From assembly GCA_963791435.1 (NCBI GenBank), contig CAWBSL010000003.1:421035-485034 (forward strand): a DNA stretch of 64,000 bases, given 5' to 3'. Position numbers and translations under genes: made by a program. Below, piece after piece: positions 9,661 through 53,832 of the stretch. Positions within the stretch are counted from its first letter, which is position 1, and each line of letters begins with the position of its first letter. Below the pieces are notes generated by a model. That model made no database searches, had not been told where the DNA came from, and was given only the letters and a program-made list of their open reading frames with translations. The DNA is from Candidatus Dormiibacterota bacterium. Lineage in GTDB: Bacteria; Chloroflexota; Dormibacteria; Aeolococcales; Aeolococcaceae.

Positions 9661-9706
9661 TTGATAGGATCACGTGTATAAATGCTGATAGTACCGCTGA
9701 TAGTAC
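9661..9706. repeat. AT-rich divergent glgX/treY control region with tandem 12-nt repeat GCTGATAGTAC(C/G) x2 plus a third TGATAG copy
   Basis: GCTGATAGTAC occurs at 9684-9694 and 9696-9706, and TTGATAGG at 9661-9668. On the minus strand these read as TACTAT/CTATCA -10-like boxes. Confidence 0.4.
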
Positions 9707-13936: not shown

Positions 13937-16274
13937 GGTGCCACCGCCGGGTGTCGATTCCGCGGTGATATCCCCACCGTGGAGCCGAGCAAGCTCGCGC
14001 GAGAGATAGAGCCCGAGTCCCGTGCCGGAGATGTGGCTGTTCTCAGGAGTCACCAACCGGCTGAAGCGTGTGAACAAGCGGTGCATCTGCTCCTCCGGAA
14101 TCCCGAGTCCGTGGTCCATGACGGCGATGCGCGCAGAGCCGTCACTCGCCGTAGCGTCGCAGCTGATCTCGCCGCCGTCCGGTGAGAACTTGATCGCATT
14201 GTCGAGGAGATTCCGGAGGACGGTCTCGATCCTCCCCGCATCGACGTTCACGATCACCGTGTCACCGGGCAGACGAACGTCGAGACGGTGGCCCGCGGTG
14301 AGCTGCGGCTGAATCGCCGACGTTGCGGCGGTGACGATCGCGCGCAGGCGTTGGGGTTGCCGGTCGAGGCGCGTGATCCCCTCCTCGAGACGCGCGGTCT
14401 CGAGCATCTCGTTCACGAGCGCGTTCATCTCATCGAGCTTGCGTTCGATGACCGGCATCGCACGTTCGAGCGCCTCGCCGTCGAGCGATTTGTCCGCCAT
14501 CATCGAGAAGTACCCGCGGACGATGGCGATCGGTCCGCGCAATTCGTGCGATGCGAGCTTGAGAAAATCGGAGCGCATCTGCTCCATGGCCCGGGTGCGC
14601 TCGATGTGCTCGTGCAGGCGTTGCGCCTCAGCGTCGGCAAGGGCGCGCATCCGGTGCTCGGACGCCTTGATCTGCCAGACGAGTCCGGCGGCGAACGCGG
14701 CCAGCTGCAACGTCCACGCGTCCTCGTCGCTGAACCCGCCGGGATAGATCGGTTCGTGTGCGGCCAGGACACCAAGGCGTAGTGCTCCAGCGCGCCAGGA
14801 GACCGACATGGTGTCGACGGCCTCCGAACCGTCTTGGCGGACAGGCACGCTCGTGCCGAGCTCGTTCGCATGTCCGCGAAACACGGCATCGCCAAAGACA
14901 ACACGGTCGCGATCCGATGTGCCGCTGGGGTCGCACGGGACCGGTCGCAACTGCGCGAACTCGTCGTCGGTGACACCGTAGGCCCCGGCCGCGGGTGTCA
15001 AACGGGTGCGGTCGGTGCTGAGCCTCCACAGCAACACCCGGCGCGCTCCCACGAGCTCTGCGACGGTTCCGGCGAAGCGTGCGAAGAGATCGGCATCCGA
15101 GGTCGCCGCATCGAGATGGTCGGACACGCTGAGCAGCACCCGCAACGCCTTTTGCTGCGCCTCCTTGGTTTCTGCAAACAGGCTGGCGTTGCGCAATGCG
15201 AGCGCGGCGGAGAGCGCGATCTGTTCGAGGTTTTCCAGGTCGAGCTGCGCGAACTCTTGATTCGAGCGACGGCTCACGGCGAGAATGCCGAGCGCATGGC
15301 CGCTGGTCCGGAGAGGCACGATGACGCGCCGGCGCACGTCGGACAGCTGTTCCTGCATGTCTTCGGGCATGCCAGGCACGTCGGAGAAACCTTCAAACGC
15401 GCCCTCGCCGCTCTCGATCGCGGCGCGAATCTCCGGAGTCAACTCCCATCTCGCCCCGATTCGCGCGGGAGCGCGATCACGGTCGTACCCGGCAATGGCC
15501 TCGATGGAATCCGGCCAGAATTTGGTCACCGTGATGCGATCGACGTCGACTTGCTCGGCGATCCGCTCGACGATTGCCTGAACAACGCGCGACGGGTCGA
15601 GTGACGCCGAAAGCTCACGCGTCGCTTCACTCGTCAGACGCAGGCGTTCGACCAGACGCTGAGTTCGATTCGCGGGCGTCGTCGCCGAGGACGATGATGC
15701 TGATCAAGCGGGTGAAGCGATCCATCACGGCTCTGTCGACGTCGTTGAATGGCCGGCTCTCCGCGCGCCAGAACCCGACAACTCCCGTCGCGACGCGTCC
15801 GTCGGGGAGCGGTGTGCCGGTCGACAAGGGGACGAGGCGTCCCACCCGGATCCGCTCGCGGAACACGTCCGGGGCGGCGCTGTCCGCCGCAGGGTCGGTG
15901 GTCTCGACGGGGGTCTGGTGGAGAATCGCCCGCCCGTGGAGCATTCCTTCGTGGAGCGGCCATTCCCTGCCGATCAGTTCCTCCGCCCAGGGACCGGATC
16001 CGGCGACGACCTGAAAGACGTCCGGTCGCGCGGCGGAGACGATCGAGATGACGCACTCGGCGTCGTCGACGAGATAGGTCGCCTCGACCGCCATGAGTTG
16101 GAGCACCTCCCGGAGTGGGATGGGCGCGCGGGGGTCGCTCGGAACGTCGAGGAGCCGTCCGACGAGGCGCCCGATTGCCTCGTCAACACTTCGCGCAGCA
16201 TCGTCTGGAGGCGGGCTGGTTCCAGGCGCAGCAATCTCAGACGGCGATTCGCTCCGGCTCCCTTCGAGCACCAC
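13883..16274 (-). pseudogene. Soluble multi-GAF sensor histidine kinase HK1; the ORF track splits it into a 215-aa GAF protein and a 548-aa kinase because of an apparent 1-nt frameshift
   Basis: H-box ASHELRGPIAIVRGY and HATPase N/G boxes (LLDNAIKFSPDGG, GTGLGLYLSRELARLHGG); no TM segment. The kinase frame stays open for about 35 codons upstream of GTG 15529, encoding the start of a GAF domain (LRLTSEATRELSASLDPSRVVQAIVERIAEQVDVDRITV) with no ATG/GTG/TTG. It meets the GAF ORF (15627-16274) at the GGG run 15674-15676. Confidence 0.75.
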
Positions 16275-16295
16275 TATACGACGCGTAGACTGACC

Positions 16296-16324
16296 ATTTT
16301 ACTGATATCGACTATATCACCCAA
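16296..16324 (-). promoter_or_regulatory. Candidate sigma70-type promoter for HK1 (TTGGGT-N17-TAAAAT)
   Basis: Minus strand reads TTGGGTgatatagtcgatatcagTAAAAT, about 21 nt upstream of GTG 16274. Confidence 0.35.
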
Positions 16325-16369
16325 GCCACCAGTCTCCTGACGGACGTTCCGATGCTGGTCCACCCAGGC

Positions 16370-16400
16370 TATAGTGACACTATAAGATTTTGTGACAATG
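16370..16400 (+). promoter_or_regulatory. MerR1 control region: perfect 15-nt palindrome TATAGTGACACTATA overlapping island motif CTAT-N9-TGACAATG
   Basis: The palindrome spans 16370-16384. CTATAAGATTTTGTGACAATG spans 16380-16400. TATAAG is a -10-like hexamer. Confidence 0.45.
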
Positions 16401-16474
16401 TGCAAGCCCGACCGATGCTCGATCCCCCATAGCCCGGCGAGGGCGGCAACGCCTTGCCATCCGGAGGCGGCCTG

Positions 16475-16792
16475 ATGAACGGAACAGTCCAGCTCGAGAA
16501 GCCCTTGTACACCCTCGACGTAGCGGCAGAGATGCTGGGAAGCCATCCGCGCACCCTGATCCTCTACGAGGAGCTGGGGGTCGCGAGACGATCAGCCGCC
16601 GGCACCAACAAATGGCGTTTCACGCTTCGCGACATCCTTGCACTGCGAGCGGTTTCGAGGCTGCGCCGCCAGTATCAGATGAACCTGGACGGCGCTCGTC
16701 AGCTGATCCGGTGCGTGCAACTCCTCGATGCGCATCACATCCCTCGGCCCCGCGAGTTGCGAGGCTTTGATCTTGAGCACGTCTCCATCTAA
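16475..16792 (+). CDS. MerR-family regulator, HspR-like HTH (paralog 1 of 3)
   Basis: LEKPLYTLDVAAEMLGSHPRTLILYEELGV reads as a MerR/HspR-type HTH. C-terminus CVQLLDAHHIPRPRELRGFDLEH is shared with the two paralogs. ATG 16475 has GGAGG 8 nt upstream; the ORF-track start is TTG 16454. Confidence 0.85.
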   Translation: MNGTVQLEKPLYTLDVAAEMLGSHPRTLILYEELGVARRSAAGTNKWRFTLRDILALRAVSRLRRQYQMNLDGARQLIRCVQLLDAHHIPRPRELRGFDLEHVSI

Positions 16793-18011
16793 GCGCGTCG
16801 AGGCAACGCGTCGCGGCCGCGCCGCGAACAGCGGTCAATCGGCCCCACGCGCGGCGCGCCCCGCAGCGAGCCGCCCGCGCATCCGTCCGCTCCTCGAGTC
16901 TCGTTCGCTGAAGGCGCTGGTCTGGCTCGCCATCATCCTGGCGCTCATCTGGATCTGCGAAGGCGCGGCGTTCATCCTCGTCCATGTTTTCAACGTGCTG
17001 CTGCTCTTCATCTTCGCGGGCATCATCGCGCTGATCCTCACGCCGCTCGTCGACCGGATGGAGCGAGTGCCACCGTTTCGCGGGCATCGTTCGATCACGG
17101 TTCTACTGATCTACATCGTGGGACTCGCGATTGTCGCGGGCGCCGTGATGTTGTTGCTTCCGACCGTTGTGGCGCAGGTCAAAAGTCTCCCGGCACTCAT
17201 GCAGACCGTCGAGGATCAGTTGCGCCATCACGGCATTTCGTTCAGCGTCGCATCGCTGATCAAAGCGCTGAACGGACAGCAACTCGGTGTCGCGATCGGT
17301 GTCGCGACCGCGTTTGTCTCCGGACTGCTCAGCGTGGTGCTGATCCTGGTGATCTCCATCTACCTGCTCATCGAAGGCCGCGCGGTGGTCGCCACTGCGC
17401 GCAACCTCTTCCCGAGCCGCCAACGGGAGTTCGACTTCGCCGCGCTGGCCGTCGGATCGACCGTGGCGGCCTACGTGCGCGGGCAGATCGTCATGTCATT
17501 TGTCATCGGCGCCTACACCGGCGTCGCACTGACGCTTGTCGGCGTCAAGTACGCGATCCTCATCGGCATCGCCGCATTCTTCCTCGAGTTCGTGCCGATC
17601 GTGGGTGCGGTCGTTGCGATGGGTCTCGCCATTGCCGTTGCGCTCCTGCAAAGCCCGGCGCTCGCGCTGTTTGCGTGCGGCGTCGGCCTCGTCGGGCACG
17701 CGATCGACGCTTACGTGCTCGGTCCACGAGTCTACGGACGCGTGACCAGGCTCCATGCGCTCGTGGCGATGGCCGCGCTGCTGGTCGGCGCCGAACTTGC
17801 AGGAATCCTGGGTGCCCTCTTCGCCGTCCCGGTTGCGGCCGTCGCGAACATCTTCCTTGGCGCTGTGTACCGGGCCCAGCGCGGTGAGCAGGCGATGAGC
17901 ACCGCTCCCGATGAATCGGTGACCGTCGACACGTTGCCGCGTCTCGGCGAAGAGGTCAGCTCGGTGGAGGAGGAGGGGGTCAAGAAGGAGCCCGTGCCGC
18001 ACGGCGTCTGA
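16728..18011 (+). CDS. AI-2E (PerM/UPF0118) family transporter
   Basis: Eight TM helices and the family-typical FLEFVPIVGAVVAMGLAIAVALLQSP. The start is uncertain: in-frame TTG codons at 16767 and 16773 would reduce the overlap with MerR1. Confidence 0.85.
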   Translation: MRITSLGPASCEALILSTSPSKRVEATRRGRAANSGQSAPRAARPAASRPRIRPLLESRSLKALVWLAIILALIWICEGAAFILVHVFNVLLLFIFAGIIALILTPLVDRMERVPPFRGHRSITVLLIYIVGLAIVAGAVMLLLPTVVAQVKSLPALMQTVEDQLRHHGISFSVASLIKALNGQQLGVAIGVATAFVSGLLSVVLILVISIYLLIEGRAVVATARNLFPSRQREFDFAALAVGSTVAAYVRGQIVMSFVIGAYTGVALTLVGVKYAILIGIAAFFLEFVPIVGAVVAMGLAIAVALLQSPALALFACGVGLVGHAIDAYVLGPRVYGRVTRLHALVAMAALLVGAELAGILGALFAVPVAAVANIFLGAVYRAQRGEQAMSTAPDESVTVDTLPRLGEEVSSVEEEGVKKEPVPHGV

Positions 18012-18044
18012 GCGCTGCGCCGGACGGCAGCGACTGGCGCGTCT

Positions 18045-18488
18045 TCAGTACGGGGTATCGGCCGAAGGGATCGCCTGCGACTTGCGCGTCTGCTCGACCT
18101 TGGTGGAGAGCTGAGCCGGGGTGGTGTCCGCTTTGACCAGGAACTCGAGGGCGCCCAACTTGAGGCCGCGCTCGCGCAGCTCGGGTTCCCCGTAGTTGCT
18201 GAGGATGATCACCGGGATGTGGGTCGTCGCGGGCTCGCCACGGAGGTGCTCGAGCACCTCGAACCCGTCGAGACCGGGAAGCCGGAGGTCGAGGTAGATG
18301 AAGTCCGGCGCTTCGTCGGCCGCCATTCGCAGCCCTTCCTCGCCGTCATGAGCCACGACGACCGTGTAGCCGTCTGCCGCGAGGCGCAGCCGGTACATCT
18401 CCGCCGCAGACGAGTTGTCCTCGATCAACAGAACCTTGACGTCGTCATCCACCAAGCTCTCTCCTCTGACCTCCGCCATCGGCGACAA
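18045..18488 (-). CDS. Stand-alone receiver (CheY-like) response regulator RR1, no output domain
   Basis: VKVLLIEDN...DFIYLDLRLPGLDGFEVL...PVIILSN...LEFLVKA has all receiver motifs (DD, phospho-Asp, T/S, K). The protein ends about 15 aa after the receiver. Confidence 0.9.
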   Translation of the reverse strand: MSPMAEVRGESLVDDDVKVLLIEDNSSAAEMYRLRLAADGYTVVVAHDGEEGLRMAADEAPDFIYLDLRLPGLDGFEVLEHLRGEPATTHIPVIILSNYGEPELRERGLKLGALEFLVKADTTPAQLSTKVEQTRKSQAIPSADTPY

Positions 18489-18613
18489 CCCCTGGCATCT
18501 GCGCCCATCTCACTGCGTTGGTTCTCATGCTCACGACTGTCTCTTCCGTACGGTAGCGCACAAACCGGGACGATTGGCGGTGGTACCGACGCTCCAACCC
18601 TCGACCGCATGGC

Positions 18614-18634
18614 CATTGTCAAACATTATGATAG
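18614..18634 (-). promoter_or_regulatory. Island motif copy upstream of RR1: CTATCATAATGTTTGACAATG
   Basis: Read on the minus strand, it has the same CTAT-N9-TGACAATG spacing as the MerR1 copy. TATCAT/CATAAT are -10-like. Confidence 0.4.
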
Positions 18635-18744
18635 CGGCTATAGGATGCTCGAGGGGGAGGTGCGGCCGGCGACCAGGCGCCCTGGGTCGTCTGATGGCCG
18701 CCCTATGGCCGCCTCATGCCTGCTGGCAGAAACGACAGTGCACG

Positions 18745-18786
18745 CTATAAGATAACTTGACAGTGCGGATGTCAAGGTGCTAGTGT
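18745..18786 (+). promoter_or_regulatory. MerR2 promoter: island motif CTATAAGATAACTTGACAGTG, TTGACA-N18-TAGTGT, and HAIR-like inverted repeat CTTGACA-N7-TGTCAAG
   Basis: TTGACA at 18757-18762 and TAGTGT at 18781-18786. The perfect 7-N7-7 inverted repeat at 18756-18776 overlaps the -35 box and spacer. Confidence 0.5.
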
Positions 18787-18978
18787 CGTCGCAGGGGGAA
18801 GGTCCACTCGTGAATCAAGAATTCCCCTCCCCAAAGCCCACCCCGCCGGGGTTCATCCCCCGGCCGGGGTGGCCAATCCAAGAGGCGGCATCGGCCGCTC
18901 TGTGGGTGCAGCCAGCGAGGTATACACTCGCGCTGATGACCGCGTTGGCTCAACGCTGAGCTCGTCGATGCGTCGCCG

Positions 18979-19323
18979 GTGACGCGCGGCGCTCCTGCGA
19001 GCAGCGCCGTGCAGAAGCTGAATCTCGACAAGCCGCTGTACACCATCGGGATCGCGGCGGAAATCCTCTCCACGCATACGCGGACATTGATGATGTACGA
19101 GCATCTCGGTCTCGTCGTCCCCAGCCGCACCACAACAAACCGCCGGCTGTATTCGCAGCGCGACATCATCACTCTGAGCGCGATCCAGCAGCTCACGCGC
19201 AAGTTCGGGCTCAACCTGATCAGCGCGAAGTATCTGATCCTCTGCCTGCAGCTGCTCGACGTGCACGGTGTCCCGCGGCCGGCCGGCCTCGCGGATCTCG
19301 ACGTCGAGCACGCGAGAGTCTGA
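18979..19323 (+). CDS. MerR-family regulator, HspR-like HTH (paralog 2 of 3)
   Basis: LDKPLYTIGIAAEILSTHTRTLMMYEHLGLVVPSRTTTNRRLYSQRDI; C-terminus CLQLLDVHGVPRPAGLADLDVEH. GTG start. Confidence 0.85.
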   Translation: MTRGAPASSAVQKLNLDKPLYTIGIAAEILSTHTRTLMMYEHLGLVVPSRTTTNRRLYSQRDIITLSAIQQLTRKFGLNLISAKYLILCLQLLDVHGVPRPAGLADLDVEHARV

Positions 19324-19333
19324 GGTTGCTCCC

Positions 19334-20083
19334 CTACTGTTCGATGCTGTCGGAGCGGTCCCTGAATCGCGCCACCGCGTCGGAGATGGTCTCCTCGAGA
19401 TACCGGTAGAACAGGCGACGCTGGGAGATGTCGATCGCCGCTTCGACGTCCTGCCCCTCTCGACGCCGCGCGATCCACGGTGGCACGCCGTCGGCGACCG
19501 TTTCGGTGCCCACGCGGACGTGCACGAGTGAGTCGTTGTCCTCCGCGACGTGGAGAGTCACGTTGAGGATCGGTCCGGTGTGCTCGACGAGGCGCCAGCT
19601 GCGCTCCCACCTGGTGTTGCGATGGAAGTCGTGCGTGCGTCGCGCCGCGTTGTCGGCGATCACGCTCTCTCCGGGGCGCGCCGCGCGTGCGAGGAGCCTC
19701 CGGATGTCTCTGTCGATATCACGACCGATGAAGTCGACGAGCGACGGCGCACGGTCGTCAACATCCGGGTGTCCGCTCTGGTCGCGGGCGAGCTCGCCGA
19801 TCGCCTGAACGGTCCCTGCATGACGGCGGCAGTACACGACGCCGCCGAGCGAGATGCTGTGCGCTGGGCAGATGGTGGCTGAGCACGTGCGCTCGCGACG
19901 GTCGCGATAGGCGCAGAGCTGCGCGGTGTTGTTGGTGCACCCTCGCATCGTGCAGGTGATGCCCGATGCCGTCTGCGGTGGCGGTGCGGGATGCTCGCGG
20001 CGCCGGAACAGTGCTGTCGCGGGGAGCGCACCGAGTCGTCGAAGTGCGCCCGTTTCCTTGCGGGGAGTTTCCACAGTCAGCAC
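19334..20083 (-). CDS. Hypothetical protein with an N-terminal Cys/His-rich (putative metal-binding) segment; last gene of the MerR3 operon
   Basis: 249-aa ORF. ITCTMRGCTNNTAQLCAYRDRRERTCSATICPAHSISLGGVVYCRRHAG has 7 Cys and 2 His in 50 residues. Codon third positions are G/C-rich. No family was recognised. Confidence 0.6.
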   Translation of the reverse strand: MLTVETPRKETGALRRLGALPATALFRRREHPAPPPQTASGITCTMRGCTNNTAQLCAYRDRRERTCSATICPAHSISLGGVVYCRRHAGTVQAIGELARDQSGHPDVDDRAPSLVDFIGRDIDRDIRRLLARAARPGESVIADNAARRTHDFHRNTRWERSWRLVEHTGPILNVTLHVAEDNDSLVHVRVGTETVADGVPPWIARRREGQDVEAAIDISQRRLFYRYLEETISDAVARFRDRSDSIEQ

Positions 20084-20240
20084 GTTACGTGTCCTCCAAG
20101 TCCCACTCTCTTGCGCGGGCCACCCTCGCTCGCGCTACTGAGGTAATCAGACCCCACCGACGGCGCGGTCGTGGGCGTATGCGACGGTTTGCGATGCAGC
20201 GTTCACACGCGGTGACGCGAGGCAACCGCGGCCCCAGGCG

Positions 20241-20621
20241 TTATGCGGGTTCGGTGCCCGAAGACGCCTGCAGGGCGGCGATGCGCTCCTGCCAGAACTC
20301 GAGTCGCCGCTCGAAACGAGCCGCTTCTGCGGTGAGCACCTTGAGGTCCGTCTCCTCAACCTCCGACCCCGCGTCGTCATGCATCTCCTCCATCCGCTCC
20401 TCGGCGACCGAGAGGAGATCCCGTTTGAAGTCGAGCAATTCCAGATAGACCTTGGCCCAGTGCATGGCGTCGTCGAGGTACGCGGTGTTCTCGTCCTCGC
20501 CTTCGAGCAGCCGCTCGGGCTCGACCGCGTCGAGTGCCGCCTTGCGCGCCTCGCGAGGCGGCGGCGGTTCGGGGAGGTCGCTGCCCGCTGCCGAGGCCTC
20601 CGGCGTGTCAATGCTGCTCAC
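20241..20621 (-). CDS. Hypothetical acidic helical (coiled-coil-like) protein, translationally coupled to RR2
   Basis: 126-aa ORF rich in E/D/L/R (AKVYLELLDFKRDLLSVAEERMEEMHDDAGSEVEETDLKVLTAEAARFERRLEFWQERIAAL). Its start overlaps the RR2 stop (20618-20621). Confidence 0.55.
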   Translation of the reverse strand: MSSIDTPEASAAGSDLPEPPPPREARKAALDAVEPERLLEGEDENTAYLDDAMHWAKVYLELLDFKRDLLSVAEERMEEMHDDAGSEVEETDLKVLTAEAARFERRLEFWQERIAALQASSGTEPA

Positions 20622-21001
20622 GACAGCATCTTTCGCGTCGCCTCGGCGAGAGCCGCCGGCGGCGTGTGCGCTTTGACGAGATAGTCGTGCGCGCCAAGGG
20701 CTCGCCCGCGCTCGACCAACTCCGGTTCGCTGAAATTGGTGAGGATGACGACGGGTATGCGAGCCGTCGCCGGCCCGGCGCGAAGCTGCTGCAGAACGTC
20801 GAAGCCGTGCATCTCCGGGAGGCCGAGGTCGAGATAGATGAGGTCTGGGGCTTCCGTTCCGGCGCGGCGGATCGCTTCCTTGCCCGAGTGCGCGGTGATG
20901 ACCTGAAATCCGTGGGCGGCGAGCTGCATCTCGTACATGGTCGCGACGTCAACATCGTCGTCGACGAGCAGCAGTCGGATTCCGTGTGACCCATCAGGCA
21001 T
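20618..21001 (-). CDS. Stand-alone receiver response regulator RR2
   Basis: MPDGSHGIRLLLVDDD...DLIYLDLGLPEMHGFDVL...PVVILTN...DYLVKA. ATG 21001 overlaps the HK2 stop (20994-20996). The 75 extra N-terminal residues in the ORF track are not protein-like. Confidence 0.9.
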   Translation of the reverse strand: MPDGSHGIRLLLVDDDVDVATMYEMQLAAHGFQVITAHSGKEAIRRAGTEAPDLIYLDLGLPEMHGFDVLQQLRAGPATARIPVVILTNFSEPELVERGRALGAHDYLVKAHTPPAALAEATRKMLS

Positions 21002-22877
21002 CGTCTCTCCCCGCTGGCCTTTGACGTCCGCGCGGCAAACGCAGCGTGAATGTACTCCCTTCGCCAGGGTGCGATGCGACGTCGATGTCCCCGCCCTGGG
21101 CTTGCGCAAGGCCACGCGAGAGGTGCAGGCCGAGGCCCGTTCCCTGTATCCCTGCGGCGACGGCTTCCGGCAGCCGGCCGAATGGTTGAAACAACTTCGG
21201 CAGGTCCGCGTCAGCGATGCCCTCACCGTGATCGGTCACGTCGACGGCAGCCCATCGCGGCTCCGCGCGCACCGTCATGGTGACCGCACCACCGTCAGAT
21301 GAGTACTTCACCGCGTTGGAGACGAGGTTGCTGAGTATCGTCTCGACCTGTTCCGGGTCGGCGCGGACGCGGACCCGCCCGGCCGACTGCACGCTGACGG
21401 TCCGCGCGGCTTGCCCCGAGACCGCGTTGCCCGCTGCAGCGGCCACCGATCGCGCCAGAGCGTCGAGGCTGAACTCTTTCGTGTGCTGACCACGGGCGCG
21501 AATCTCCATCCGGCTGGTGGTGAGCATCCGGTCGACCAGCGCACTCATGTGCCGCATTCGTGCGGCCATCAAGGGCACGACTTTCGCGGCGGGCGCCGGA
21601 AGATCGCCGAGCGATCCGTCCTCGAGCATCGAGAGGTAGCCACTCACCAGCGTGATCGGTCCGCGGAGCTCGTGTGACGCCAGCTGGAGGAACTCCGACT
21701 TCTGCTGCTCGAGCTCCGCCATCCGCTGCGCGTGCGTCTCGAGCCTGTCGAGCTCTGCCGCCTGCAATCCCTGGGCACGCTGTTCAGCGGCATAGCCCTG
21801 CCAGACGAGCGCCGACGACCGTGCAGCGAGACGGATGATCCACTCGTCCTGGTCGCTGAAGCCCGCGATCGAGTTCCATGCGGCGAGAATGCCGAGCGGG
21901 ATCGCCGCGGTGCGCCAGGGCACGGCCAGCACGTCATGCGCGCCGAGGCGGGCGATCATCGAGCCGGGATGCGTCGCCAGGTACGCGTCATCCAGGCTGA
22001 GCCGGACGGCCTCGCCAGAGAAGAGGAGTTGAGCAAGGTCCGTGTCGCCCCTCGCGTCGAGCACCCCGCGTGCCGGCCGCCCCGCGGCTGCTTGCTCAAC
22101 CGCGGTGCCGGGCTGATGGAGCGGGATCAGCTCCTCGCCCGTGAGCTGCCAGAAGCCGGCATGCTCGGCTGAGACCAGGCTCGCCACGGTCTCGCTCATC
22201 TTCTCGAAGTACGTGGCCGGCTCCACGCTGGACGCCATGTGTCGCGACATCTGCGTCAGCGCGTCCAGCCCACGGCGCTGTGCGCTCCGAACCTCGTCGA
22301 CGAGGCGCGCGTTGCGCAACGCGAGGATGGCCAGGGGTCCGACCTGCTGCAGGCCTTCGAGCTCGCGCGGGACGAAGGGGCGATCGCTGCGCCTGCTGAG
22401 GATCAGGACCGCGCCCACGGTCTCCCCGATCGCAAGAGGAACGATCGCGGTATGGCGGATCGACAGCAATGACGGCGCGAGCTCGGGCTCGGAGGCCGCT
22501 CGGGCGCCGAGGCTGCCGCCGAAGACGATCGCACCGGTCGTGACCGCTTCGCTGAGCAAGGGCTGCCTCGCCAGCCAGGCCATGGGGTACTCGTGACCCA
22601 CGAAGTCAGGCCGGCCGCCAGGCTCGTAACTTGCTTCGACTCGAAGGACGTTCTGGTCGAGGCTGGTCAGGGTGCAGCGGTCGACATCGACGTTCTCAGC
22701 CGCAAAGCGCACGAGACGTTCCATGATCTCGTGCGGCTCACCACGGGACACCAGATCCGCCTCGATCGACCCTGCGAGATGGGCCGGTTCCGGCGCCTGG
22801 GGTGGAAGGTCAGAGACGAACGTGCTCGATGTCAATTCCGGCGAGCTCCGGTGGCCGAGGGATGCCGTGGGCGTCAA
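20994..22877 (-). CDS. Soluble GAF-GAF sensor histidine kinase HK2
   Basis: H-box ASHELRGPITLVSGY; HATPase motifs LVSNAVKYSSDGG and GTGLGLHLSRGLAQAQGG; two GAF-like regions; no TM segment. The ORF-track start is TTG 22877 and overlaps MerR3 by 68 nt; ATG 22724 (MERLVRFAAENV) is an alternative start. Confidence 0.85.
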   Translation of the reverse strand: MTPTASLGHRSSPELTSSTFVSDLPPQAPEPAHLAGSIEADLVSRGEPHEIMERLVRFAAENVDVDRCTLTSLDQNVLRVEASYEPGGRPDFVGHEYPMAWLARQPLLSEAVTTGAIVFGGSLGARAASEPELAPSLLSIRHTAIVPLAIGETVGAVLILSRRSDRPFVPRELEGLQQVGPLAILALRNARLVDEVRSAQRRGLDALTQMSRHMASSVEPATYFEKMSETVASLVSAEHAGFWQLTGEELIPLHQPGTAVEQAAAGRPARGVLDARGDTDLAQLLFSGEAVRLSLDDAYLATHPGSMIARLGAHDVLAVPWRTAAIPLGILAAWNSIAGFSDQDEWIIRLAARSSALVWQGYAAEQRAQGLQAAELDRLETHAQRMAELEQQKSEFLQLASHELRGPITLVSGYLSMLEDGSLGDLPAPAAKVVPLMAARMRHMSALVDRMLTTSRMEIRARGQHTKEFSLDALARSVAAAAGNAVSGQAARTVSVQSAGRVRVRADPEQVETILSNLVSNAVKYSSDGGAVTMTVRAEPRWAAVDVTDHGEGIADADLPKLFQPFGRLPEAVAAGIQGTGLGLHLSRGLAQAQGGDIDVASHPGEGSTFTLRLPRGRQRPAGRDDA

Positions 22878-23154
22878 GCAGCTGGAGGCACTTGATCACG
22901 TACCGGGCCCCCGCGATGTTCAGGCCGGACTGGCGCGTCAGCCGCTGGATCGCACTCAGCGTGAGGATGTCGCGCTGGGAATACCGCCGCCGGTTCGTGG
23001 CAGTTCGCTCCGGAACGCCGAGACCCATCGTCTCGTACATCATCAGTGTACGTGGGTGGCTGGCAAGGATCTCAGCGGCGACGCTGATCGTATAGAGCGG
23101 CTTGTCGAGGTCGAGCAGCCGCTCCGACGTCGGAATACCCGCCTCAGCAGGCAT
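22810..23154 (-). CDS. MerR-family regulator, HspR-like HTH (paralog 3 of 3)
   Basis: LDKPLYTISVAAEILASHPRTLMMYETMGLGVPERTATNRRRYSQRDI; C-terminus CLQLLDAHGIPRPPELAGIDIEH. Confidence 0.85.
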   Translation of the reverse strand: MPAEAGIPTSERLLDLDKPLYTISVAAEILASHPRTLMMYETMGLGVPERTATNRRRYSQRDILTLSAIQRLTRQSGLNIAGARYVIKCLQLLDAHGIPRPPELAGIDIEHVRL

Positions 23155-23241
23155 ACGGCTCGCGAGCGGCAGGCATCATCACCGCGATTCTATATGCCTG
23201 TCGCCGCGTCGCTCGCCGAGGTGCATCCTCGGCGGATCGCG

Positions 23242-23445
23242 TCAGACGAGGCTGGCGCTGGTGACGGGGCGCTGGCGGAAGAACTGCACGCGGCAGTGGT
23301 CGCAGCGGAAGACGAGACGCAGCCCGAGGCGTCCAAGGACGTTGGTGATGCGCGAACTGCATTGCGGGCAGGTCGCGGCCTCTTCGAGGTAGGGTCCTTC
23401 CACCGGCTTGACGTCGAGTTGAATCGGCTTGTATTTGCGAGCCAT
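23242..23445 (-). CDS. 67-aa zinc-ribbon mini-protein (CPQC...CDHC), first gene of the MerR3-HK2-RR2 operon
   Basis: MARKYKPIQLDVKPVEGPYLEEAATCPQCSSRITNVLGRLGLRLVFRCDHCRVQFF. GGAGG lies 7 nt upstream of ATG 23445. The longer ORF-track model (to 23712) is not supported. Confidence 0.6.
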   Translation of the reverse strand: MARKYKPIQLDVKPVEGPYLEEAATCPQCSSRITNVLGRLGLRLVFRCDHCRVQFFRQRPVTSASLV

Positions 23446-23498
23446 CGGGTACCTCCAGGTGTCGTGGGACATTGCTCCCGTCCCCACTGCCAGGAATA

Positions 23499-23519
23499 TC
23501 CTATCACAAAACATGATAG
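23499..23519 (-). promoter_or_regulatory. Island motif copy upstream of the zinc-ribbon/MerR3 operon: CTATCATGTTTTGTGATAGGA
   Basis: Read on the minus strand, it has the same CTAT-N9-TGAYA spacing. The region also forms CTATCA-N7-TGATAG and CATGATAG-N12-CTATCATG inverted repeats (23501-23539). Confidence 0.4.
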
Positions 23520-23547
23520 TGGCGCTATTGGCTATCATGTGACGACC

Positions 23548-23715
23548 ATGATCGAGATGTTCTCCCCGGATGGGACGCAGGTACCCGCCGCGCGCCGTCC
23601 GCGCTCGGTGAGACGGCGGCGCAGGCGTGACGTTCGCGCACTGGTGACCGGCGCTGCCCTCGTGATGGCCGTCGCCTGGACGATGGTCCTCGGAGCCGGC
23701 ATCTTCCTCCACTGA
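23548..23715 (+). CDS. Candidate 55-aa Arg-rich single-pass membrane mini-protein upstream of RR3-HK3
   Basis: MIEMFSPDGTQVPAARRPRSVRRRRRRDVRALVTGAALVMAVAWTMVLGAGIFLH. Codon third positions are strongly G/C. A TATCAT box lies about 9 nt upstream of the ATG. It is not listed separately in the ORF track (it forms the tail of 22672-23715). Confidence 0.4.
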   Translation: MIEMFSPDGTQVPAARRPRSVRRRRRRDVRALVTGAALVMAVAWTMVLGAGIFLH

Positions 23716-23844
23716 ACGGGGAGTTGGGTGCGGTCTGTCACCGCGTCATCGAACGTGTGAGCAGTTGGTTTGCTACCGTACCTATGACGTCGTTTGGCAT
23801 TCGCCGAAGGAGCGAAAGCTTCAGCGGCCAAGGAGGAGTGTGTA

Positions 23845-24240
23845 GTGGAGGATGACGTCAAAGTCCTGCTCATCGAGGACGACGTCGCCGCTGCGGAGAT
23901 GTACCGCCTGCGCCTCGTCGCCGACGGCTATGTGGTCGTCATCGGGCACGACGGGGCCGAGGGGCTGCGTCTGGCGTCCGAAGAATCCCCCGACTTCATC
24001 TATCTGGACCTGCGCATGCCCGGGCTTGACGGCTTCGAGGTGCTCGAGCGGCTTCGCGCCGAGCCCGCGACGATGAACATCCCGGTGATCATCCTGACCA
24101 ACTTCGGCGAGCCCGAGTTGCGCGAACGCGGCATGCGGCTCGGAGCACTCGAATTCCTGGTGAAGGCGGACACCACCCCTGCTCACCTCTCTGAGAGCGT
24201 CGAGCGGGCTGTCGGCCCGCGCGCACTTCCGTCGGCCTGA
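23845..24240 (+). CDS. Stand-alone receiver response regulator RR3 (close paralog of RR1)
   Basis: VKVLLIEDD...DFIYLDLRMPGLDGFEVL...PVIILTN...LEFLVKADTTPA. GTG 23845 is preceded by AAGGAGGAG. The ORF-track start is 23794. Confidence 0.9.
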   Translation: MEDDVKVLLIEDDVAAAEMYRLRLVADGYVVVIGHDGAEGLRLASEESPDFIYLDLRMPGLDGFEVLERLRAEPATMNIPVIILTNFGEPELRERGMRLGALEFLVKADTTPAHLSESVERAVGPRALPSA

Positions 24241-24283
24241 GGCCGGCGGCTCGTCGTCCGCCCCGCCCCGGTATTCAGCGTGG

Positions 24284-25396
24284 ATGACCTTGCGCTCATC
24301 GAGGGCGCCTCAGGTGCGTTCCTTCGCGACGCCGTCCAACTTGCCTCGCGTCGTTGCGTCTGGCACGGGTGCCCCTCGGCAGACGTGGTTGTTGCTCCTT
24401 CGAGGCGATCTCCTGACCTGCGTCGCGGCGTCCGGAACCCGCGACGGCGCAATCTCCCGCGCGTATCGCGTGGCAGATCGCCCGAGCTTCGAGGAAGCGA
24501 TCACATCGGGCGAGATCACAGCCGGTCCGGCTGAGGTGCTCGTTCCTGTTCACAGTGACGGTGCCGTGGTGGGGCTCCTGATGATCGACGGGGGGCACGA
24601 TCTCAGCGACCACGATCGACACACCTGGTCGACGCTCGCCGGCCTCATGGGGTTTGGGATCAGCCAGGCCGCCACGGTCGATCACCTCCAGCAGGAGGCC
24701 GAACGCAGCCGCGGCCTCGAAAGCCTCAAGGGCGAGTTTCTCAATATCGCCGCGCACGAGTTGCGCAGCCCGCTGGGGATCATCCGGGGCTACGCCTCGA
24801 TGCTCAGCGAGGGGACGCTTCCCGAGGCGGACCGGGGCACGGCGCTGGCGCGCATCGCGGAGAAGGCCGAGGAGATGGCACGCCTCATCTCCGACATGCT
24901 GGAGACAGCCCGCCTGGAGACCCTCGGCCTCGAACTGGAACTCGAGCCGGTCGATCTCCTCCGCGTCATCGATATGGCGGTAGGCGAGATGCGGCCGCTC
25001 CTCGGCAACAAGCATCGGTTTGCGGTCGCGGAGCATCCGGATTCGATCGCTGTGGTGGCCGATCAAAAGCGTCTCACGGCGATGCTCACCAACCTGATCG
25101 ACAACGCCATCAAATACTCGCCGGGCGGCGGCGACATCGAGGTGGCGTGCGAGCACGACGGCCGGGTGGCGAGGGTCACGGTCCGCGACCATGGCATCGG
25201 CATCAACGCCGAGCAGGCCCACATGCTCTTCACCCGGTTCGGTCGCCTCGTGACGCCGGAGACGAGCCATATTCGCGGGACTGGGCTCGGGCTCTACCTC
25301 GCCCGCGAAACCGCCCGCCTTCATGGCGGTGACATCCAGGGAAGCTCGACGCCCGGCGGCGGCAGCACGTTCACGGTGGTGCTTCCGCTCGCCTGA
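24284..25396 (+). CDS. Soluble GAF sensor histidine kinase HK3 (kinase core paralogous to HK1)
   Basis: H-box AAHELRSPLGIIRGY; HATPase motifs LIDNAIKYSPGGG and GTGLGLYLARETARLHGG. LFTRFGRLVTPETSHIRGTG is nearly identical to the HK1 equivalent. No TM segment. Confidence 0.85.
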   Translation: MTLRSSRAPQVRSFATPSNLPRVVASGTGAPRQTWLLLLRGDLLTCVAASGTRDGAISRAYRVADRPSFEEAITSGEITAGPAEVLVPVHSDGAVVGLLMIDGGHDLSDHDRHTWSTLAGLMGFGISQAATVDHLQQEAERSRGLESLKGEFLNIAAHELRSPLGIIRGYASMLSEGTLPEADRGTALARIAEKAEEMARLISDMLETARLETLGLELELEPVDLLRVIDMAVGEMRPLLGNKHRFAVAEHPDSIAVVADQKRLTAMLTNLIDNAIKYSPGGGDIEVACEHDGRVARVTVRDHGIGINAEQAHMLFTRFGRLVTPETSHIRGTGLGLYLARETARLHGGDIQGSSTPGGGSTFTVVLPLA

Positions 25397-25425
25397 CCTC
25401 CCTGAGGGCGATGCGTTAAAGCGAT

Positions 25426-25469
25426 GAGTCCACCCGGGTCGGGGCTAGGGGGCCCGGCCGGGTGGACTC
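25426..25469. terminator. 12-bp GC hairpin between convergent HK3 and hemerythrin genes (no U-tract)
   Basis: GAGTCCACCCGG (25426-25437) pairs with CCGGGTGGACTC (25458-25469). Confidence 0.4.
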
Positions 25470-25573
25470 GAGGGGAGGGGTGGGGACCGGCGGTTGGACG
25501 CCGCCGACCTTTCGAGACTAGTCGTGGCGTACCAAACGTGTCAACTCGACTGCCTGCGGACCCGTACCGGTGA

Positions 25574-26095
25574 TCAGGAGCCCTCGGGCGGCGCGTTCTC
25601 CTCCACGTATTCCTCGGGATCCCTGTCCTCGATGGTGATGCCTCGCGCGCCGGCATGCTCGGTTTCGAACGCCGCGAACGCCGTGGCCAGCTCGGCCTGC
25701 TCGCCAGACGACGCGGCATCGTCGAACTCGATGAGCGGTCCTTTCTCCTCCTCATCCATGTGCTCGGTGTTGGCGTCGTCGGTGGCCTTGACGGCGTCCC
25801 ACCAGGCGTTCTCGCCGATGGCATGCTGCTCGGCCTCGCGGATGCCGTCGCGGATCTCGTTGTGGTCCCTGATCGCATCCTTGGTGTCGTCAACGGAGTC
25901 GGAATCGTCCTTGAGCAGGCGTGGGTAGAAGAGCGTCTCCTCGGCTGCCGCATGCACCTCGAGGCGAGCTGACAGCACCGTCCAGATCGAGGTGACGGTT
26001 GCTTCGTCGCCCCGCGCGGCATCGAGCGCCGCGAACTGACTCCGGAACCAGATGTGGTCCATGCGGATGATGTCGGTCACACGGTTCGTTTGCAT
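25574..26095 (-). CDS. Hemerythrin (HHE cation-binding) domain protein
   Basis: MDHIWFRSQF, EVHAAAEETLFYP, IRDHNEIRD and EHMDEEE give the His/Glu ligand pattern of hemerythrin-like domains. ATG 26095 is preceded by GAGGAG. Confidence 0.8.
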   Translation of the reverse strand: MQTNRVTDIIRMDHIWFRSQFAALDAARGDEATVTSIWTVLSARLEVHAAAEETLFYPRLLKDDSDSVDDTKDAIRDHNEIRDGIREAEQHAIGENAWWDAVKATDDANTEHMDEEEKGPLIEFDDAASSGEQAELATAFAAFETEHAGARGITIEDRDPEEYVEENAPPEGS

Positions 26096-26205
26096 GCGAC
26101 TCCTCGTCAGTGGACGGAGGCGGGGCCCAGCCTCGAGTGAGCACCCCCCACGCCAGTCTGAAGGTGTTGGATTTAGTGATAGTACAGATGTTGCAAACTG
26201 GCGGT

Positions 26206-53275: not shown

Positions 53276-53832
53276 CCGCAGGCGGTCGACGCTTTCCCGG
53301 CGCCAGCGAGCTCCGTCTCGAACGCGTGCACGCGGCGCTGAATGCGGCTGTCCGGAAGCGAGGGCATCAGCCCGAAGAACCGGAGTTGGGATCGGTGACC
53401 TCCAAGCCCGTGCTGAGGGTCATCAACAGCGTTTCCGAAGCAGATCACCACATGCACGTCGTGCGTTGTGGCGGATGTGACAGTGCCGAACGACGCCCGG
53501 GTATGTGCGCTAACGAACCGACCACCCGTCAGGGGCTGGCGCAGGTTGCGCGAGACGGAAGTGGAATGAACGGCTTCATGGCAGTGCTCGCGGTGTGGGC
53601 ACCGGTTTACGCTGCACCGCGTTCACTGGCCATGCGCCGTGTAGCAAGGCTGAACCGCTGTTCGATGCTCCGACATTGCGCGGCGGGTGCTTGTGTTCCG
53701 TTACGGGCCGGGCGCGTCCCAGGTGACCACCCTATGCTCAGCGCGCTCGGAACGCGCCGACGCCGTTGCGTGAACGATCGGAGGTTACGCGATGCCAGCT
53801 GTGGCCTGCGGGCGCACGACTGCAATGGGTCA

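Follow-up and report, generated by a model that had tools for sequence, protein, structure and literature searches.

Four copies of a short inverted repeat lie in the promoter regions of an island of regulatory genes in the 64,000 nucleotides (nt) of Candidatus Dormibacterota DNA analysed here, hereafter the window, and we consider that these repeats are probably, though by no means certainly, repressor operators through which the island's three HspR/GlnR-TnrA-like MerR proteins would regulate their own and one another's genes. In related loci the element is a clean inverted repeat, CTATCA-N7-TGATAG, and the comparisons below establish the dyad itself, its strict 7-base-pair (bp) spacing, its conservation, its placement at promoters and the kinship of the MerR proteins with known regulators. 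The window has a G+C content of 66%, and the DNA runs that hold it are soil metagenomes.

The original prediction described a 21-nt motif of two blocks, found four times and upstream of island genes only. We recovered all four 21-nt strings at their coordinates and on their strands, and within the 64-kilobase (kb) window the motif does adjoin promoters and is confined to the island. Written as CTAT-N9-TGAYARKR, it matched the window five times against 0.03 matches expected (100 dinucleotide shuffles, none of which reached five), the fifth match (23501–23521, plus strand) being the palindromic site 4 read on the other strand. Because this pattern was composed after the sites were known, we added an independent test with a 19-column matrix built from the dyads of related loci alone, with the window excluded. 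The four best matches of this matrix in the window were the four sites, at 19.1 to 30.5 bits (Table 1), followed by a match of 9.9 bits at 26164; the maximum over 20 block-shuffles was 13.5 bits. Since a matrix from relatives alone ranks them first to fourth, the window copies are somewhat degenerate members of the dyad family, with CTATAA for CTATCA and TGACA for TGATA. The downstream block TGACA(A/G)TG had been called specific to the island, which holds for three of its four copies in the window, the other lying within a gene at 53478. Further CTATCA boxes are indeed found upstream of glgX (9667, 9691 and 9703, minus strand), the hemerythrin gene (26182, minus) and a small membrane open reading frame (ORF; 23532, plus).

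To place these sites in a wider context, related loci were gathered by a scan with the MerR alignment, keeping one genome per species. This yielded 77 loci, almost all from Candidatus Dormibacterota metagenome-assembled genomes, and in the nearest relative MerR1 is 88% identical. The dyad was sought in the window and in 604 kb of these loci, 668 kb in total. Allowing up to one mismatch, CTATCA-Nx-TGATAG occurred 56 times at x = 7 (32 perfect copies and 24 with one mismatch), and each of the other spacings from x = 3 to x = 11 gave zero copies or one. Many of the 56 copies are orthologous, and the dyad recurs in at least seven non-orthologous promoter classes that share the form (C)TATCA-N7-(T/C)GA(T/C)AG (Table 1). 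Site 4 is unchanged in 20 relatives; the Zn-ribbon-class dyad sits inside a block of 46 nt without variation among 20 genomes, whereas the intergenic DNA around it does not align. The orthologs of site 1 in eight relatives read nTATCA-N7-TGATAg, and the consensus of site 3 over 12 loci is ctATCAG.TTGCTTGACAg.

Matrix matches in the relatives were concentrated between genes: 76 of the 94 matches of 14 bits or more fell in intergenic DNA, which by a crude ORF caller makes up 19% of the sequence, and the remaining 18 were the same promoter classes beneath over-extended ORF calls. Exact half-sites stood upstream of 86% of Zn-ribbon genes (within 150 nt), 86% of STAS genes and 67% of genes for a 111-amino-acid (aa) protein, and were also frequent at queC-side genes. 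None was found in the related loci upstream of corA, the gene for a Cys-rich 249-aa protein, the L25 gene or many others with ample upstream space. Such genes carry different conserved boxes (at corA, TAGGAT about 9 nt before the ATG), and for this reason the dyad is not a generic promoter shape. A chance likeness among the AT-rich promoter regions of a GC-rich genome is effectively refuted as well, and we assign it next to no probability. In AT-rich metagenome contigs the same 15-base pattern often arises by chance, and in a metagenome-wide scan with CTATCANNTTTNNTGATAG one of the 120 matches listed was a Dormibacterota Zn-ribbon site, the others being chance matches in AT-rich contigs; however, the expectation in the window is a small fraction of one match, the spacing is strictly N7, and the sites are kept at orthologous positions in dozens of genomes with 66% G+C.

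We next turn to the proteins that might bind the dyad. The island encodes three MerR-family proteins (112–114 aa, 43–53% identical to each other), three receiver-only response regulators, three cytoplasmic GAF-HisKA-HATPase kinases, an AI-2E family transporter, a 67-aa Zn-ribbon protein and several proteins of unknown function; glgX, treY and treZ flank it on one side and the hemerythrin gene on the other. No DNA-binding protein can be recognised in the island apart from the MerR paralogs, the receivers having no output domain. A dyad lies upstream of each of the three MerR genes, the usual mark of autoregulation. MerR3 is 94–99% identical across relatives, in parallel with the invariant Zn-ribbon dyad; such parallel conservation is the standard comparative-genomics argument for an autoregulated factor, and here it suggests one.

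By sequence and by fold, the island MerRs are closest to small MerR-family repressors. The NCBIfam HspR profile (NF047375) was the best profile for all three, at 46–79 bits, below its equivalog cut-off of 105. The closest Protein Data Bank (PDB) sequences to MerR3 were the DNA-binding domains of GlnR and TnrA, and its AlphaFold model (predicted local distance difference test score, pLDDT, 86) matched GlnR–DNA complexes best, with target-normalised template modelling (TM) scores of 0.81–0.86. The model has no long coiled coil and ends after helix 4 and a short tail. The MerRs carry about 18–22 residues ahead of the first helix of the helix-turn-helix and 19 after helix 4; an extra N-terminal helix is not predicted.

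These features invite comparison with TnrA and GlnR of Bacillus, whose minimal site is 17 bp, TGTNA-N7-TNACA, with an essential 7-bp spacing, and which form weak dimers on DNA, place both wings in one central minor groove and are controlled by a partner protein through a C-terminal tail (PMC4335299). Shared with them are the small size (110–135 aa), extra N-terminal residues before the winged helix, the lack of a long coiled coil, the nearest solved structures, and a 17-bp operator core with 5-bp arms and a 7-bp spacer, the spacing of 56 sites here against none or one at any other. Of the arms, only the degenerate TGACA and TGTCA of the window conform to the TnrA consensus; the core of site 1, TATAAGATTTTGTGACA, and the TnrA operator of the crystal structure, TGTAAGATTTCCTGACA, agree at 14 of 17 positions. 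In an alignment to GlnR (4r4e), the equivalent of TnrA Arg28, which reads the critical G, is conserved. The systems differ in that the consensus arm here is TATCA/TGATA, the G critical for TnrA being replaced by A; that the island has three paralogs, which score 20–26 bits with the NCBIfam TnrA-type profiles; and that no glutamine synthetase or nitrogen-metabolism genes lie nearby, the neighbours being GAF kinases, receivers and the Zn-ribbon protein.

The HspR operator HAIR, CTTGAGT-N7-ACTCAAG, often occurs in several copies and depends on its spacer (PMC6102357). HspR and HAIR (Streptomyces, Helicobacter) likewise combine an N7 inverted repeat over promoters, with several copies or half-sites per promoter, and a repressor that controls its own gene and relies on a partner protein for its activity, much as we propose for the island. 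In contrast, the arms here are CTATCA/TGATAG, the proteins fall under the 105-bit cut-off, and none of the chaperone genes dnaK, clpB and groEL was found in the 668 kb examined.

The classical MerR activators (MerR, CueR, SoxR) are a more distant model. The CueR operator is an inverted repeat of about 19–21 bp, and the island proteins share with these activators the MerR-family winged helix (Pfam MerR_1) and an inverted-repeat operator. However, in the activators the dyad lies inside a 19–20-bp spacer between −35 and −10, whereas the conserved MerR2 promoter has a normal 18-bp spacer, with the dyad covering the predicted −35 and extending upstream of it; the position of the dyad varies among promoters, and the island proteins are 114 aa long, without a long coiled coil or effector domain in the model.

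We then asked where the dyad lies relative to the predicted core promoters. The original prediction read the 5′ block as a −10 hexamer, which fails at MerR2. There the TTGACA of the 3′ block serves as the predicted −35 of a TTGACA-N18-(TGn)TAGTGT promoter, which leaves the 5′ block on the upstream side of that hexamer; TTGACA, the 18-bp spacer, TGn and TAnccT are conserved in 12 orthologous loci. Nor does the block behave as a −10 in general: four of the seven classes have G or C as base 7, where a −10 would carry its critical −7 T, and half of the Zn-ribbon class has C; C1, C5 and A6, which are free in a −10, show conservation of at least 87% (at least 90% for C5 and A6) and have mirror counterparts in the second arm. 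In the MerR1 and Zn-ribbon classes the right arm and the following 3 nt instead form TRTGnTAnnnT, a predicted extended −10 (TGATAGTGT or TGATAGGAT). TAnnnT (TACACT/TATAGT, TAGTAT) also stands 2–5 nt before the left arm in the MerR1, second Zn-ribbon and 111-aa classes, which places the predicted start site inside the dyad, and the queC-side class has a consensus TATAAT within the spacer. In the window, transcription is predicted to start at about 23491 (minus strand) for the Zn-ribbon operon, at about 18793 for the MerR2 leader, and at either about 16382 or about 16408 for MerR1. By these assignments the dyad overlaps the region occupied by RNA polymerase in every class, as repressor operators do, and its varied position within the polymerase footprint is as expected of such operators. 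The suggestion that the downstream block might be an operator therefore fares well in one respect, as both blocks jointly form one dyad, and poorly in another, as no separate downstream block is involved. In relatives, assembled metatranscriptome contigs indicate that the Zn-ribbon gene and its 5′ untranslated region (UTR) are expressed; the contig ends fall at the edges of the conserved block, are probably assembly-graph breaks and carry no start-site information.

The same positions bear on an action at the RNA level, with the inverted repeat serving as a 5′ hairpin for stability or translation, which we regard as very improbable. Site 4 does fold as a 7-bp hairpin (−6.6 kcal/mol, z = −2.0), but sites 1–3 fold no better than shuffles, the MerR2-class dyad, upstream of its −35, would not be transcribed, and a −10 ahead of the dyad puts the predicted start in the left arm, so that the stem of the hairpin would be truncated.

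Combining these observations, we propose that the island's core promoters contain, as an integral part, an operator of consensus CTATCA-N7-TGATAG, whose 17-bp core is TATCA-N7-TGATA and whose centre is T-rich. Dimers of MerR1, MerR2 and MerR3 would bind it with one recognition helix per arm and the wings in the central A/T-rich minor groove. A bound dyad would cover the −35 (MerR2), the extended −10 (MerR1, Zn-ribbon/MerR3) or the predicted start (other classes, in relatives); RNA polymerase would thus be shut out of an occupied promoter, and the outcome would be auto- and cross-repression among three modules of MerR, GAF kinase and receiver. Release would probably act through the conserved C-terminal tail of the MerRs (LLDAHGIPRP...D.EH), by analogy with TnrA/GlnR and glutamine synthetase and with HspR and DnaK, and the Zn-ribbon protein or the stand-alone receivers are candidate partners. 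The identity of the binder, repression and the partner-protein switch are thus the parts of this scheme that we infer.

Several observations weigh against this interpretation, and some of them would favour a different one. All −10, −35 and start-site assignments were read from sequence conservation alone. The arms are unequal, conservation being higher in the promoter-distal (upstream) arm, and in each of the seven classes the spacer has its T-rich strand directed toward the gene; a promoter-linked polarity of the dyad is real to some degree. Site 2 appears to be the weakest and least secure of the four dyads: between the window and the nearest relative, L001, CTATCATAATGT (the CTATCAT half) is kept at RR1 and the TGACAA arm is not. 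At the glgX/treY and hemerythrin promoters, the TGATAG boxes (CTATCA on the other strand) are single or directly repeated. Each of these last points would suit a promoter element acting without any repressor, in which CTATCA(T) would be a −10-type element (or mark an alternative-sigma class) and TGAYAG the start site or initial transcribed region. The small membrane ORF (ATG at 23548), to which the plus-strand TATCAT beside site 4 belongs, adds to them: TATCAT, about 7 nt and ATG form a credible near-leaderless promoter there, and the fit holds in most relatives. We nevertheless judge this reading unlikely. The −7 base is not T in most classes, and C1, C5 and A6 are near-invariant and mirrored at a strict N7; the MerR2 class has a conserved canonical promoter whose −35 is covered by sites that begin upstream of it; and other genes of these genomes use TAGGAT, TAGAAT or TACACT boxes with no dyad. 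A bidirectional −10 was considered as the cause of the palindrome and rejected, as the left arm read leftward never gives TAnnnT and so is never a valid −10 in the opposite direction.

Other points concern the binder. The equivalents of TnrA Arg31 and Tyr32 are Met and Met in the island proteins; with two of three base-contacting residues different, the specificity of TnrA/GlnR is not transferable, although a kept Arg28 beside changed Arg31 and Tyr32 would fit a related but different half-site. The loci were gathered by anchoring on MerR genes, so that the association of dyad and MerR is partly built into the sample, and distant homologs with the same recognition helix, HPRTLMMYE, mostly have no dyad nearby; both facts weaken the autoregulation argument. 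The dyad might instead be a true operator for another protein, either the 67-aa Zn-ribbon protein, which is co-transcribed, or a regulator whose gene lies elsewhere in the genome. Its absence at distant homologs with an identical recognition helix would suit such a binder, as would the Zn-ribbon genes themselves, since the most perfect dyads belong to two Zn-ribbon paralogs and half-sites are so frequent upstream of this family. We think this improbable, because the N7 geometry is in keeping with MerR paralogs of GlnR/TnrA/HspR type and a site precedes all three of their genes. The Zn-ribbon protein in particular shows no sign of a DNA-binding fold, given a low-confidence model (pLDDT 67) whose best structural match was not significant (E = 0.18). 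Upstream of the distant MerR homologs, no alternative N7 dyad was found.

Candidatus Dormibacterota is a widespread, uncultured soil phylum with dormancy traits, and we know of nothing on how it controls transcription. Our literature search returned no paper connecting the phylum with regulators of this kind. As an operator motif the dyad is new, and it probably marks a new regulon in an unstudied phylum. A sharply defined, conserved operator with probable regulators gives a practical point of entry: regulons can be predicted with the dyad in any Dormibacterota genome, and the small regulators can be expressed and footprinted without culturing the organism. The 7-bp-spaced geometry of HspR and TnrA/GlnR operators is now seen with a new half-site and in a new signalling context as well. 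No new principle is involved, as a palindromic operator inside the promoters of an autoregulated repressor is textbook biology, useful and in principle unsurprising. More speculatively, and rather doubtfully, the dyad might belong to a Dormibacterota-wide stress or dormancy regulon, in which an undescribed HspR/GlnR-TnrA-like subfamily would be gated by GAF-kinase/receiver and Zn-ribbon partners, a C-rich small RNA (18819–18873) would be driven by a dyad promoter, and TGATAG boxes would link glgX-treYZ and hemerythrin.

Table 1 Dyad sites, promoter elements and MerR genes of the window, and dyad classes in the window and related loci
Feature	Position	Strand	Description
Site 1	16380..16398	+	CTATAA-GATTTTG-TGACAA, upstream of MerR1 (ATG at 16476); 19.1 bits
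Site 2	18616..18634	-	CTATCA-TAATGTT-TGACAA, read toward RR1; 21.2 bits
Site 3	18745..18763	+	CTATAA-GATAACT-TGACAG, right arm overlapping the predicted −35 hexamer; 20.1 bits
Site 4	23501..23519	-	Perfect dyad CTATCA-TGTTTTG-TGATAG, upstream of the Zn-ribbon/MerR3/HK2/RR2 operon; 30.5 bits
Predicted core promoter, MerR2 class	18757..18786	+	TTGACA (18757-62), 18-bp spacer, TGc TAGTGT (18778-86)
Conserved block with site 4	23493..23538	-	46 nt; predicted extended −10 TGATAGGAT (23506-23498, minus) and TATCAT −10 (23533-38, plus)
Candidate −10, TATAGT	16370..16375	+	Aligns with conserved TACACT of MerR1 orthologs; predicted start in left arm
Conserved block	16303..16320	-	TGATATCGACTATATCAC, HK1/GAF promoter region, further TGATA/TATCA half-sites
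Leader/small-RNA-like element	18819..18873	+	55 nt, GAATTCCCCTCCCCAAAGCCCACCCCGCCGGGGTTCATCCCCCGGCCGGGGTGGC, just downstream of the site 3 TTGACA/TAGTGT promoter
TAGAAT box	23187..23192	-	Before MerR3; core of the proposed fifth copy; separate internal promoter-like element, no dyad
Weak dyad-like site	26164..26182		One perfect TGATAG arm, upstream of hemerythrin gene; 9.9 bits, within shuffle range
Three TGATAG boxes	9662..9703	+	Direct orientation, glgX-treY intergenic region; no dyad; matrix score about 0
MerR1	16476..16792	+	Pfam MerR_1; small HspR/GlnR-like winged helix; HspR 45.9 bits
MerR2	18979..19323	+	Paralog; HspR 70.2 bits
MerR3	22810..23154	-	Paralog; HspR 78.8 bits; 94–99% identical across relatives
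Class 1, Zn-ribbon/MerR3 operon			CTATCA yGTTTTG TGATAG
Class 2, second Zn-ribbon gene			CTATCA TnTTTyC TGATAG
Class 3, MerR1			nTATCA ggTTTta TGATAg
Class 4, receiver/STAS/MerR2 region			ctATCA GnTTGCT TGACAg
Class 5, 111-aa gene of unknown function			CTATCA cnTTTAC CGACAG
Class 6, DUF6582 gene			cCATCA TtcTTaG TnATAG
Class 7, small hydrophobic ORF divergent from queC			cTATCA TatAATG CGATAG

Some boxes in the window resemble the dyad and stand outside its family. The degenerate fifth copy that had been proposed just upstream of MerR3 (23174–23194) is not a member, with matrix scores of −14 to −26 bits. What the MerR3 orthologs conserve there, between the Zn-ribbon gene and MerR3, is the −10-like TA(G/C)AATCGC, and the TGATGATG part is unconserved. 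In the window, 7 nt separate the TAGAAT box from an ATGATG, the beginning of an 11-codon ORF that runs over the MerR3 start (23174–23197, minus strand); MerR3-like paralogs at other loci also show TAGAAT, 7 nt and ATGATG, and are leaderless in appearance. In the glgX/treY region, two of the TGATAG boxes are GTACTATCAG repeats, 12 bp apart on the glgX strand, and the GTACTATCA box of this region recurs before the hemerythrin gene at 26176–26185. The trehalose/glycogen and hemerythrin genes may be tied to the same regulator through such non-palindromic sites. A HAIR-like CTTGACA-N7-TGTCAAG at 18756–76 was rejected as window-specific, its second arm being unconserved in orthologs. In the HK1/GAF promoter region, the TGATATCGACTATATCAC block is kept as TGATAGCGACTATATCAC in MerR1-class loci, with a weak matrix match at 16290. 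A leaderless upstream ORF starting from the ATG inside TGACAATG was also discarded, as MerR1 orthologs either lack the ATG or have it in a different frame.

Among the MerR relatives, the MerR1 orthologs of L004, L007 and L008 have PGTL in place of PRTL in the recognition helix (Arg to Gly) despite a kept upstream dyad, which may mean that the DNA specificity of MerR1 is lost or altered there. The distant homologs (L056–L077) include bins labelled Chloroflexota, Actinomycetes and Acidobacteriota. Their conserved HspR-like cluster, which holds neither chaperone genes nor a dyad, consists of a trehalose-phosphatase-like gene, a small divergent ORF, a MerR gene, a receiver gene, a second MerR gene, and genes for a small membrane protein and a class A penicillin-binding protein.

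Downstream of site 3, the 55-nt element GAATTCCCCTCCCCAAAGCCCACCCCGCCGGGGTTCATCCCCCGGCCGGGGTGGC is nearly invariant in 11 genomes with diverging flanks (the window, L001, L003–L006, L043, L053, L059, L066 and L070). It combines a C-rich, anti-Shine-Dalgarno-like single strand with a 15-bp GC hairpin that does not vary, and another hairpin, which is variable, lies ahead of it. A 2-nt indel of the element in L070 argues against coding, and an Rfam search of window positions 14000–26000, this element included, gave no match; the element is a candidate small RNA or regulatory leader. Further toward the gene, positions 18921–18959 hold a conserved GGTATACACT (TACACT at 18923–28) followed after 7 nt by ATG (18936), directly upstream of MerR2 or the STAS gene. 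This ATG opens a seven-codon mini-ORF, MTALAQR* in the window and MIERAVV* in relatives, and the arrangement resembles a leader peptide or a second promoter, this one leaderless. Upstream of the gene for the Cys/His-rich 249-aa protein, a block unrelated to the dyad (20084–20240 in the window; 14 loci) reads GTTGCgcc.cGTCACCGC ... ATCGCAAACCGTCGCA ... GTCTGATTA. Finally, GGTTTGTGCGCTACCGTACGG is conserved in the long RR1 leader (5′ UTR) at about 18540–18570 (minus strand) and is common to L001 and L003–L006.

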